Positions 60,801 through 64,000 of a stretch of 64,000 nt of DNA are shown here, one piece after another. Each line of letters begins with the position of its first letter. Position 1 is the stretch's first letter. Source of the stretch: Alphaproteobacteria bacterium (GTDB lineage Bacteria; Pseudomonadota; Alphaproteobacteria; Paracaedibacterales; CAITNM01); contig CANKYV010000005.1 in assembly GCA_947487955.1 (NCBI GenBank), positions 940 to 64,939 of the forward strand, read 5' to 3'. Position numbers: made by a program.

Positions 60801-63800
60801 TAAATAAAAAAGGCGAATCAAGCAGTCTATTCACCTTTACGCAAGATCAATTAGACCTGATATCAAGCTTTCACGACTATTCTGGCCCTTTATTTGACAG
60901 CTTGAAAACATATGAGCAAATTTTATGTTTTCACAGTAGAGAAACCGTGGAAATTCCTTCACCATCGCAGTGGCATCAATACGTAAGGCCAGCACAACTT
61001 CTTCAAGGAGATCAACGTTATTACTACGCTTATGGCGCTAATGGTTTTGATTTAGACCATAGTCAAATTCTCTCTTTTGAGGCTTACTTAACAGCACGTT
61101 CTTACAATTGAGGAAAGCCGTCATCACGAAGGAGAGCAGCTCCTGTGGTGATCTAGTTAAACTGATTTTACCACGCTGGATTGCCACACCTCCTGCGGAG
61201 GTTCGCAAAGACAAAAAGCGCAACAAATGCCATCAATTATGCGTAGCAACCAACACAGGGAAAGCTAGTTTAAATGTGGTGTATTCGCCCTCAATAGAAT
61301 CACACGTAATATCTCCGCCAAAGCTCAACATTGTAGACTTACAAAAAGCGAGCCCTACCCCAGTCCCCCTGACTGTTCGTGAATAAAAATTTTCAAAAAT
61401 ATGAGGCAAAATAGAGGCAGGAATTCCCTGACTTGTATCTTTAAAATAAAGGTAATTGAATTTTTTCCCCATCTCTTGCCATATGTACAATTCCCCCTTA
61501 TCCGCCGCCCGAATGTAGTACAGGGCATTTTTGAGAAGATTAAACAATATATGCTTTACGTATAACTCATGACCCTTAAAAGAAAAATTGGTGGTTTGGT
61601 CCCAATGAATGAGCTTTTTTTGACTCTCGTCCAAAGGATATTCGCTTAGCATCAATTCAACGCAAGTGCTTATCTTACAATTTTTATAGTCATTCATTAT
61701 TGGTTTTCTTTTTAAATTCATGAGAAGCATATCAATGACAATAAATGCATTCCGCGTTGTTGTGTTAATGCGTTCTGGTACTGAATGCAATAATTCTAAA
61801 GCTTTTTGTGTTTCTTGTTTTTGTTCACTTGGTTGGTATTTTTCAAGAACGGGCAAACATTTTTTCATTGATTCAGCGATCATTGAAAGGCTTGCCAAAG
61901 GTGTGCGAAGTTCGTGGGCGATGGTAGCTGCCAAGCTTTCCATTGAGCGCAAACTTTCTCTTAGCTTCACAATTTCTTTATGACGTGAGAAAAAAATGCC
62001 AACAACGATGATAAAAGAATATTGATTGAAGGCTAAAGAGAGATCATCTGCAGTTGCTTGTATGTGAAAATTAGAGAAACCATGAAAAAGTGCATATACC
62101 CCAGCCCCTAGTACAGCACCAAATAAAACACTAATCAAGAAAACAAGCCAATCAACCAATAATATAAATAAAAACAAAGCCAGTGACATATTTGTAAGCC
62201 AACCCAAAGAAAGATTATTCTTTAAAAGCTGGTACGTACAAAAAAAGGGAAAGCTATACAAAAGAACCCCATGCCAATATAAAGGAAGATATTTTTGTGC
62301 TTTTTTCGGTAGATAGTCATAAAAAGCAAGAGGAATGGCTAAAATAGCGGCTAAAATGCGTAACATCCTGCTTTCATCTTGGTGCATAGCATTGTGCAAA
62401 ATAAAATAAGCAATAGGAAAATTTAGTAATCCTAGAATTCCATAAGCTCTATATTGAGCACCAAATAACTCAACACGGTTAGTTGAAAAAGCTAAAATTT
62501 TCTGGAGCATTTTTATATCACTTTCTTACTTTAATGGTAAATTAAGCTAGATTGCCACGCCTCTTGTAGAGGCTCGCAATGACGATACTTCACGGCCGTC
62601 ATGAGACCACGAAGTGGTCGTGGTGATCCAGTGAGTAATTTCATCATTATTATTTATCAACATTTAAGAAAAATAATCTTCTAAAGATCCTGCCCTGACT
62701 GTATCTAGCGTAAAACAATGAAATCCACCTCCAAAAATTCGTCGATGTCTATGACGAACAGGTATCGGTGTAAATCCATTCTGCTCTAATATTTTAATAA
62801 GTTCGGGGAAGCAAGCGTTAACAATTACTTTTTCTTCATCAAGTGATAGCACATTCAAATCAATATATTTAGTTGTTAACACTAAATCATCTGATTCATA
62901 GTTTGGAAATATATTCGCTTCTGGTTCTGGGGCATAAATAATATCCCACTTTTTTAAAAAATCAGGCAAAAGCTCAAAACATTCTTGATTACGCAGCAAA
63001 AGCTTACCCGGCTTTAATGGTAAAACTGTACTATCAATATGATGGTCTGTCAGTCTATATGCTTTATGCAGTCTAAATTTTTCCCCCAAATGTTTTTGCA
63101 ACCACTGAAAACCAAGATTATGGTTTTGAGTAGCGACATTTACCAATACATCTTTACCAAAACGAAGACATTGAGCACCATCAAACAGCATTTCATACCC
63201 CACATTAAGTGAAGGTACTTTTTTTTCATAAGGTTCTTCTGTGCTATAAGTAAGTGCCTCAATTTCTTCAACATACGAAAAATCAAAAGAACTATCTGTC
63301 ATCACAGGTCTTGGCATAGCAGTCCACTTAGAACCAAGGTTGAAGTAGTGGTAAAAAATTGGTTTTAAAAGATCATTCTCAAAATAGCGCGCCCTTACCT
63401 GAGGGCTAGTTTCAATAATCTCATCACCAAATATTATAGCTTGGTCACGCACATTCAACGCAGGAATCCCTGTGGCTTTCCAGTGTGGTGTCTTAAATTC
63501 AAATACATCTTTTAATTCTAAAGGCCTAAAAACTCTAACGCCTTCTTTTTCTAAGACATCTACAAACCCTTCAATATCTTCGTTTAATTCTTCCAAATAT
63601 CGCTTATTAATAGCTTGCCTTTTAATTTGTTCTGGGTTTGCCGAACTATCAATTTTGCCGTATTTGGGATAACCAAAAGCAGAAAAAGCTGTATCAAAAT
63701 AAAAAAGCTTGAAAGACAGATCGAGATCATTGGCTTCATAACTAAGGGGAGAGCCTACAATAACTTCTTTCAATGGGGACCATTCGTTATAACTATTTAT

Positions 63801-64000
63801 AGGATAAGAAGGCGTAGAACAGGCGTGTATTAATTCTATTTCACTTTGTTGTAACATCCAGGTTATAAACCAAAAAGCGATAGGACAACTTAGCTCAATC
63901 TTATCTGGTTAGCAATTTTTACTTTAATCTCTACTTTCTCCTGCCCTTTCAATAACGCTATCCAGATCTCTCTCAAGTGCATTCATTTTAAAAGTTACTT

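Follow-up and report, generated by a model that had tools for sequence, protein, structure and literature searches.

The window analysed here is a 64,000-nucleotide stretch of an alphaproteobacterial contig (CANKYV010000005.1 of assembly GCA_947487955.1). Close to its end, a gene predicted to encode an amidinotransferase lies directly upstream of a gene for a CqsS/LqsS-type sensor histidine kinase, which in turn is convergent with a gene for an LqsR-type response regulator. From the comparison of related loci, we hold with moderate confidence that the amidinotransferase, the kinase and the regulator form a functionally coupled module. The three genes are the following:

62664..63857, (-) strand: amidinotransferase gene, an ATG-to-stop open reading frame (ORF) of 397 amino acids (aa).
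61233..62510, (-) strand: CqsS/LqsS-type sensor histidine kinase, 425 aa, identified with Pfam and by alignment with CqsS.
60098..61111, (+) strand: LqsR-type response regulator, 337 aa, convergent with the kinase gene, identified by a PDB match and by Pfam Response_reg.

The first-pass annotation of this DNA had placed the amidinotransferase directly upstream of the kinase on the same strand, and this is how the genes lie, with a gap of 153 bp between them; the spacer between the convergent kinase and regulator genes is 121 bp long.

Since neither Pfam nor NCBIfam gave a match to the amidinotransferase at E <= 0.01, its family was assigned from sequence and fold matches in the PDB. In a phmmer search, each of the four solved amidinotransferases matched the protein over its full length (residues 15-396), with E values from 2.8e-57 to 7.8e-49: SxtG (PDB 6u1r, E 2.8e-57), human L-arginine:glycine amidinotransferase (AGAT; PDB 2jdx/1jdw, E about 1e-50), StrB1 (PDB 1bwd, E 8e-50) and HsvA (PDB 5wpi, E 8e-49). 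Amidinotransferases act through a covalent Cys-amidino intermediate, from whose formation ornithine leaves, and the amidino group is passed on to a primary amine. The strings quoted from the ORF by the first-pass annotation (SYNEWSPLKEVIVG, LFDGAQ, DHHID and GGGFHCFTLDTVRAGSLEDYFS) were all located in the translated protein, and the human strings given beside them also agree with the PDB alignment. In that alignment (human residues numbered as in full-length 1jdw), the triad D254/H303/C407 of human AGAT corresponds to D226/H273/C381 of the window protein, all three in register, so that the Cys-His-Asp triad is indeed intact as claimed; the Asp pair binding the guanidinium group (human D170/D305) corresponds to D138/D275. 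The codons of the triad were read in the DNA as follows:

63180-63182, (-) strand: GAT, codon of D226.
63039-63041, (-) strand: CAT, codon of H273.
62715-62717, (-) strand: TGT, codon of C381.

Residues D138, D226, H273, D275, R289 and C381 are invariant in an alignment of 118 members of the subfamily described below (118/118). The top structural matches of an AlphaFold2 model (predicted local distance difference test score, pLDDT, of 68; predicted template-modelling score, pTM, of 0.75) are SxtG, HsvA, AGAT and StrB1, with template-modelling (TM) scores of 0.67-0.77, followed by DDAH and arginine deiminase; the fold is the 'pentein' fold of enzymes that modify guanidino groups. The pLDDT is below 50 for the active-site loop and for residues 43-66 and 187-212, and the model is unsuited to pocket analysis. 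Judging from the catalytic residues and the family matches, the gene very probably encodes an active amidinotransferase. Two other ideas about its history were discarded. Neofunctionalisation or decay of the enzyme in the clade of the window protein was ruled out by the small number of substitutions particular to that clade at otherwise conserved sites (just four, none of them catalytic), and recent horizontal transfer was ruled out by composition, the GC content of the gene being 35% against 37% for the window.

Among 5.8 billion proteins searched, 2116 relatives of the amidinotransferase came up. The best 120 of these are 55-85% identical to it over about 95% of the length, and are prokaryotic wherever a source is named (Nostoc, Moorena, Planktothrix, Aphanizomenon, Streptomyces, Nocardiopsis, Saccharopolyspora, Thiomargarita, Desulfobacteraceae, Anaerolineae, Legionellaceae and Tatlockia among them). 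A scan of one genome per GTDB species found relatives in 434 stretches, which puts the subfamily in 434 GTDB species; it spans Cyanobacteria, Actinomycetota, Chloroflexota, Desulfobacterota and Gammaproteobacteria. Identities of the window protein, taken from a trimmed alignment, are 34% with human AGAT, 38% with SxtG and 35% with StrB1. A neighbour-joining tree of 118 subfamily members with these three enzymes (100 bootstraps) separates the three from all 118 members in 100/100 bootstraps, and joins the window protein to its three nearest relatives in one clade with 100% support. A segment of the subfamily (consensus LELSFKLFFHD.AYSAF.YP.Y) stands opposite gaps in human AGAT, while N300 and M302, which belong to the flap restricting human AGAT to glycine, correspond to T270-D271-H272 in the window protein, with a one-residue deletion; across the subfamily these flap positions read A/T-D-N.

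By these sequence comparisons, the window gene is a member of a large, purely bacterial amidinotransferase subfamily, to which none of the characterised, solved enzymes in the comparison belongs, and the enzyme itself is a new member of a known amidinotransferase family. The protein departs from a strict arginine:glycine amidinotransferase (EC 2.1.4.1) both in its glycine flap and in its relationship to GATM, as far as its sequence tells; since the flap residues differ, the database name 'glycine amidinotransferase' does not establish glycine as the acceptor. The description of the gene as eukaryote-like must therefore be dropped, because its identity to human AGAT is far below that to bacterial proteins and the two are split in every bootstrap: the phylogeny against GATM, StrB1 and bacterial homologues that the first-pass annotation had proposed, run here by neighbour-joining, puts the window protein outside GATM and with the bacterial subfamily. 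A eukaryotic GATM acquired horizontally from a host could account for the collinearity and the several motifs in common with human AGAT, in an organism which, judged from its relatives, is probably protist-associated. This origin is however already refuted by the tree, in which human AGAT, SxtG and StrB1 all fall apart from the window protein; the identity to human AGAT is lower even than that to SxtG, and the subfamily segment has no human counterpart, so that we regard such a transfer as extremely improbable.

The kinase had been labelled LqsS-like, which is correct according to its alignment with CqsS over the full sensor domain. It consists of a hydrophobic N-terminal region of about 180 aa, in which a crude hydropathy scan distinguishes three broad blocks (residues 49-175), not six resolved helices, followed by HisKA with the phospho-acceptor H199 and HATPase; a receiver domain is absent. 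When plasmid and chromid records were searched with the kinase, an ORF from a replicon of Vibrio campbellii aligned with 93% of the kinase length. This ORF is CqsS, since the adjoining gene matches the CAI-1 autoinducer synthase CqsA of V. cholerae (PDB 3hqt, E 7e-149). Residues 24-420 of the window kinase align with V. campbellii CqsS at 29% identity (E 2e-46), spanning the whole membrane sensor domain, and H199 is aligned on the phospho-histidine of CqsS. According to a review, the six-helix sensor kinases LqsS and CqsS receive their phosphate on H200 and H194, respectively, and the lqsS and lqsR genes of L. pneumophila are convergent, with hdeD in between (PMC3376566). The regulator matches PDB 6sy9 (E 1.8e-58, residues 13-332) over both the receiver and the unusual C-terminal half, and its D112 is aligned on the receiver aspartate. 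The label of the 6sy9 entry says just 'Response regulator', and searching texts for the code was fruitless; we take the protein to be LqsR of L. pneumophila. Subtracting a tag of 18-20 residues from D128 of the 6sy9 chain gives 108-110, against D108 in published LqsR, which is only a rough fit.

The flank past position 64000 was read from the same contig (77 kb, ENA ERZ27280204; locus L001). No cqsA or lqsA was found by tblastn with V. campbellii CqsA in the window, in the L001 flank or in any related locus, and Pfam detected no class I/II aminotransferase (Aminotran_1_2) in 20 window ORFs, which are all those of 340-480 aa except 54094-55485 (a beta-lactamase-family gene); the missing LqsA pointed out by the first-pass annotation is thereby confirmed over a wider stretch. 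The Legionella background which that annotation implied is, on the other hand, probably wrong. Every named relative of the valyl-tRNA synthetase (ValRS) encoded just past the window (874 aa, L001:4235-6859) is alphaproteobacterial: 'Alphaproteobacteria bacterium' metagenome-assembled genomes (MAGs; 59% identity), Candidatus Paracaedibacteraceae (57%), Candidatus Odyssella thessalonicensis (56%), and Thalassobaculum and Nisaea (53-56%), while the closest ValRS proteins are metagenomic sequences (68-88%). More distant homologues of the kinase also come from Odyssella and Paracaedibacteraceae. The ValRS places the host near Paracaedibacteraceae/Odyssella, and it is most probably an uncultured Paracaedibacter/Holospora-like alphaproteobacterium; by the same sequence evidence, LqsR/LqsS homologues exist well outside Legionella.

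The linkage between the amidinotransferase and the kinase is conserved. Where the amidinotransferase is at least 73% identical, the kinase gene lies immediately downstream on the same strand in all lineages (4/4), and the convergent regulator is also present in the three of these with enough sequence (3/3):

Window/L001: amidinotransferase 100% identical, spacer of 153 bp; reference for the flanks.
L004: amidinotransferase 84% identical, spacer of 10 bp; downstream flank in common with the window.
L002/L003/L006 (MAG GCA_018062345.1): amidinotransferase 75% identical, spacer of 203 bp; both flanks differ (PIN toxin and LysR upstream, LpxC downstream).
L005: amidinotransferase 73% identical, spacer of 63 bp; upstream flank differs (resolvase, RecD2-like helicase).

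A tree of the N-terminal region of the kinase, rooted on Odyssella and L172, has the amidinotransferase-bearing L005 at its base (about 90% bootstrap) and a crown made up of L002 with P0140, the window with L004, and a third clade (about 95% bootstrap) which contains two lineages without the gene and two of undescribed context. With L005 basal and the lineages lacking the gene nested in a single clade, the sequences are most simply explained by an ancestral linkage and one later loss. The linkage has outlasted the rearrangement of both flanks and a divergence of the kinase sensor region to as little as 53-57% identity; although it comes from four related lineages, this is real evidence at the sequence level for selection acting on the amidinotransferase-kinase junction.

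The surroundings of the subfamily elsewhere are of another kind. We surveyed 80 GTDB loci and 80 metagenome loci, in which the recurring neighbours are P450s, fatty-acid hydroxylases, O-methyltransferase, type III polyketide synthase, flavin adenine dinucleotide (FAD)-binding oxidase, sulfotransferase, old-yellow-enzyme (OYE) reductase and PhyH dioxygenase, as well as aminotransferase; a relative with 64% identity adjoins a class III aminotransferase, a dicarboxylate symporter and IS21. Judging from these neighbours, the subfamily typically belongs to specialised-metabolite pathways, with cyanobacterial and actinobacterial members lying within such clusters, which agrees with the earlier remark that bacterial amidinotransferases usually sit in biosynthetic clusters. 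As most subfamily members adjoin genes of the first eight kinds listed, the window gene might be the edge of a conventional antibiotic or toxin cluster running past position 64000. The first-pass annotation had seen no such cluster, which holds both around the gene in the window and in the 10 kb beyond its end. On the strand of the amidinotransferase, this flank encodes two paralogous small secreted proteins (172 and 174 aa), HIT, RNase T, YceD and ValRS, and past ValRS, on either strand, one unassigned gene, a UbiE-like methyltransferase, a Tim44-like gene and two MFS transporters. The three other kinase-linked lineages likewise have no biosynthetic genes beside the amidinotransferase. The cluster-edge explanation is already refuted for the 10-kb flank, and we consider it very improbable.

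Several observations weigh against a coupling of the amidinotransferase with the signalling genes, or against a signal made by it. In two related lineages, whose kinases are 66-69% identical, the locus is the same except that the amidinotransferase is missing, and its order is secreted protein, kinase and convergent regulator, then SDR, dCTP deaminase and MurA, with a helix-turn-helix (HTH) gene in one of them; as this sister clade keeps the locus without the gene, the kinase/regulator pair does not need the amidinotransferase. In the protein database, this clade is represented by four amidinotransferase lineages against eight with a full-length kinase (nine with the partial L005). All four positive lineages are related to one another, and common ancestry contributes to the conservation. 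The sensor domains of lineages with and without the gene are 64-68% identical to each other, no more diverged than the rest of the kinase. Beside the other subfamily loci surveyed, a CqsS/LqsS-type kinase or regulator was found in 0 of about 160, with a single weak and unrelated histidine-kinase match at L156. The active-site loop 373-386 is modelled with low confidence. Kinases of this family have hydrophobic alpha-hydroxyketones as their known ligands, and simple amidinotransferase products are small and polar. Finally, lqsR and lqsS are kept without lqsA in 20 of 58 Legionella species (PMC8023197).

Three of these points, namely the sister clade, the relatedness of the positive lineages and the frequency of lqsA-less lqsR/lqsS in Legionella, would also fit a stand-alone metabolic enzyme making guanidinoacetate, homoarginine, 4-guanidinobutyrate or a similar compound, supposedly for nitrogen or osmolyte metabolism or for host interaction, whose adjacency to the kinase would be inherited synteny without function. 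The GC content of the gene, like that of its neighbours, adds to this by making it look long-resident. The junction, however, was never broken even though the flanks were rearranged on both sides (L002) or upstream (L005), the gap is just 10 bp in L004, the linkage is older than the divergence of the sensor region given above, and partner genes for the use of a guanidino compound were not seen nearby. We judge a stand-alone enzyme possible though rather unlikely, and prefer the functionally coupled module.

How such a module could work is suggested by what lies upstream of related kinases. We define a slot as the position directly upstream, on the same strand, of a kinase of the CqsS/LqsS family, and looked at its contents in a small sample with no background comparison. 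In Cupriavidus (L183) and Ralstonia (L184) the slot holds a cqsA homologue (41-42% identical to Vibrio CqsA, gap of about 225-280 bp), and in Paraburkholderia caribensis (L181) a KAS III-like gene (27 bp). The Odyssella loci (L170/L171) have a Methyltransf_33 (EgtD-like) gene at a gap of 90 bp, together with a convergent LqsR-like regulator. One common family of S-adenosylmethionine (SAM) methyltransferases is found in L172 and L175/L176 (gaps of -41 and 13 bp), and an FAD-dependent (DAO) oxidase in L177 (about 140 bp). Non-enzymes are found in L166 and L168 (a small secreted protein, 157 and 60 bp) and in L173 (a secreted protein of 398 aa, 415 bp), while the Dyella plasmid (L182) has a divergent helicase upstream and an LqsR-like gene after the kinase. 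By analogy, we put forward as a lead that the amidinotransferase occupies the autoinducer-synthase slot of the canonical betaproteobacterial systems, and that the enzymes of the slot (CqsA, KAS III-like, SAM methyltransferases, EgtD-like methyltransferase, FAD oxidase and amidinotransferase) may be interchangeable.

The proposed scheme is as follows. In the Paracaedibacter-like lineage, the specialised-metabolite partners of the gene would have been lost, and the gene itself kept as the first of a three-gene module of amidinotransferase, CqsS/LqsS-type kinase and convergent LqsR-type regulator. The enzyme would take the amidino group from L-arginine via the Cys-amidino intermediate, releasing ornithine, and hand it to a primary amine. 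From the gene order it is most probably co-transcribed with the kinase, and if so its guanidino product would be made in step with the signalling system and be functionally tied to it. That the amidinotransferase may replace LqsA, a speculation of the first-pass annotation, is favoured by the comparative evidence, since the block is conserved in four lineages with different flanks, the linkage appears ancestral, and cqsA stands in the same slot elsewhere; the sister clade without the gene and the lqsA-less Legionella species speak against it. By analogy with the cqsA systems, the amidinotransferase could be the signal-making or signal-editing enzyme of the CqsS/LqsS-LqsR circuit, giving a guanidino autoinducer sensed by the kinase; we hold this only tentatively and think it unlikely as things stand. 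For the narrower claim that the product or a derivative of it is the signal of the kinase, a claim which draws on the same analogy, our expectation is similarly low. CqsA-type enzymes make alpha-aminoketones (CAI-1 pathway), and an acceptor of the kind of the CqsA product could be imagined here. The natural acceptor of SxtG is an alpha-aminoketone, and SxtG accepts many primary amines (PMC12371840). Alternatively, the amidinotransferase could alter the signal of a neighbour.

Literature searches combining amidinotransferase with Legionella, amidinotransferase with quorum sensing, and Paracaedibacter with LqsR returned nothing relevant; a hit on GvgD, from oxyvinylglycine biosynthesis, is unrelated. 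Within the literature searched, an amidinotransferase joined to CqsS/LqsS-LqsR without cqsA/lqsA or hdeD in an alphaproteobacterium is a new arrangement. To our knowledge, alpha-hydroxyketones are the sole class of signal known for CqsS/LqsS-type receptors. Bacteria that have such receptors but not the known synthase are numerous, and are assumed to do no more than eavesdrop. With an amidinotransferase in the synthase slot, some of these 'orphan' receptors may own unrecognised synthases and signals, and the other slot enzymes of related systems point the same way; if the slot enzymes are truly interchangeable, several new signal chemistries would be expected in protist-associated bacteria. Were the gene only a passenger, the analysis would still remove the 'eukaryote-like' label, extend LqsR/LqsS homologues to Paracaedibacter-like Alphaproteobacteria and show that a subfamily named 'glycine amidinotransferase' is without a characterised member among the solved enzymes compared.

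Four further features lie in or next to the locus:

62549..62631, no strand: GC-rich (about 55%) composite palindromic element within the 153-bp amidinotransferase-kinase spacer.
61120..61212, no strand: second, diverged palindromic element within the 121-bp spacer between the lqsR-like and lqsS-like genes.
63924..64000, (-) strand: 3' end of a gene whose product is a small secreted protein of 172 aa, with a signal peptide and without a Pfam match.
59539..59970, (+) strand: XRE-family HTH gene (Pfam), upstream of the lqsR-like gene.

In this AT-rich genome, the kinase gene has a palindromic element (type GATTGCCAC..CCTC-loop-GAGG..TCGCAATGACG) on either side, and the one at 61120..61212 is found where L. 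pneumophila has hdeD. The 'repeat element' reported earlier between the amidinotransferase and the kinase is thus real, but it exists in the window as only two diverged copies: a search for exact copies or copies with 3 mismatches found no other in the window, and the diverged second copy was detected only by blastn with short words. The element at 62549..62631 is probably an insertion, since the same spacer is only 10 bp long in the closest relative (L004), and no terminator-like site was found in the 153-bp spacer. A similar palindromic element lies upstream of the amidinotransferase in L002:7800-7840, and in the methyltransferase gene of L172 (L172:2288-3343) an element was apparently inserted in frame (peptide ...VIASEAWRS...), which recalls the Rickettsia palindromic elements.

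The gene at 63924..64000 is one of the two paralogues found directly upstream of the amidinotransferase on the same strand. Small secreted proteins (158-175 aa, with a signal peptide and no Pfam match) are always encoded upstream of the kinase locus on the same strand, with or without the amidinotransferase (window 63924-64000, L001:8766-9934, L004:1973-2500, L166:502-993, L168:165-641), and could be periplasmic accessories of the sensor. The XRE-family HTH gene keeps its position in three related lineages and may be part of the module. In a lineage without the amidinotransferase, the regulator gene is split into two ORFs (222 and 113 aa) in two independent samples (L166:2618-3594 and L167:2497-3473), which suggests decay of the system in that lineage. 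Mobile-element genes (resolvase, RecD2-like helicase, IS21 and DDE transposase) stand beside two more basal amidinotransferase loci (L005:2972-5864; L178:1-933 and 7586-9893) and hint at a past transfer of the gene, alone or together with the kinase gene, by mobile DNA.

Elsewhere in the subfamily (loci L015, L016, L020, L022, L023, L027 of Trichodesmium erythraeum IMS101, L031, L034 and L035), many filamentous cyanobacteria have a conserved cluster in common. In it, the amidinotransferase is joined by a sulfotransferase, two fatty-acid hydroxylases, an OYE reductase and an unidentified gene, for which L015 and L027 have a different one; some copies also contain an aldo-keto-reductase-like gene. 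The cluster was matched here to no known pathway; in another set, the amidinotransferase is paired with a P450 and a fatty-acid hydroxylase. Both may be pathways to new guanidino lipids. As to the rest of the window, an Rfam scan gave zero matches, whether to a guanidine riboswitch, tRNA or rRNA. The window also encodes a Sulfotransfer_2 protein of 507 aa (41182-42705), a glycosyltransferase family 90 protein (44883-46067), a family best known from eukaryotes, and two proteins without a Pfam match (a 1196-aa ORF at 46096-49686 and a 517-aa ORF at 49683-51236), and a RhoGAP-domain gene is present in the locus of a relative (L175); any of these could be an effector of host interaction. Three tandem 15-nt repeats (GAAAAGACTTCGGAT...) lie at 7215-7273, within the ORF 6774..7289.

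Among the solved enzymes, the window protein is closest in sequence to SxtG of the saxitoxin pathway (6u1r, best match at 38% identity; fold TM 0.69/0.76), with which it has the Cys-His-Asp triad and the Asp pair in common. SxtG nevertheless belongs to another branch of the tree, works within a toxin cluster, lacks the N-terminal segment of the subfamily and has a gap at the position of the invariant R289. Vertebrate GATM/AGAT (1jdw) has the same fold and catalytic residues, but is only 34% identical, and the window protein has the N300/M302 flap replaced and carries no mitochondrial presequence. HsvA of Erwinia amylovora (polyamine) and AmtA (phaseolotoxin pathway, homoarginine synthase) are comparable as bacterial enzymes which act on non-glycine amines and are tied to host interaction; they differ in branch, host and context (a virulence island and a toxin cluster, respectively), AmtA being set apart by description only.

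The window locus resembles the lqs locus of L. pneumophila (lqsA-lqsR-hdeD-lqsS) in its LqsR-type regulator, with the same unusual C-terminal domain, in its receiver-less kinase, whose phospho-acceptor His is at 199 here and at the published position 200 in LqsS, and in the convergence of the two genes. It differs from it in lacking lqsA and hdeD, in having an XRE-type HTH gene at the place of lqsA and an amidinotransferase upstream of the kinase, and in its alphaproteobacterial host. Compared with the cqsA-cqsS systems of Cupriavidus, Ralstonia and Vibrio, the chemistry is unrelated, CqsA being a pyridoxal phosphate (PLP)-dependent acyl-CoA transferase which makes alpha-amino/alpha-hydroxyketones, and the kinases of Vibrio and Paraburkholderia are hybrids with a receiver domain, which the window kinase lacks; the kinase is however homologous through the sensor domain, and in both arrangements an enzyme gene lies directly upstream of it on the same strand.

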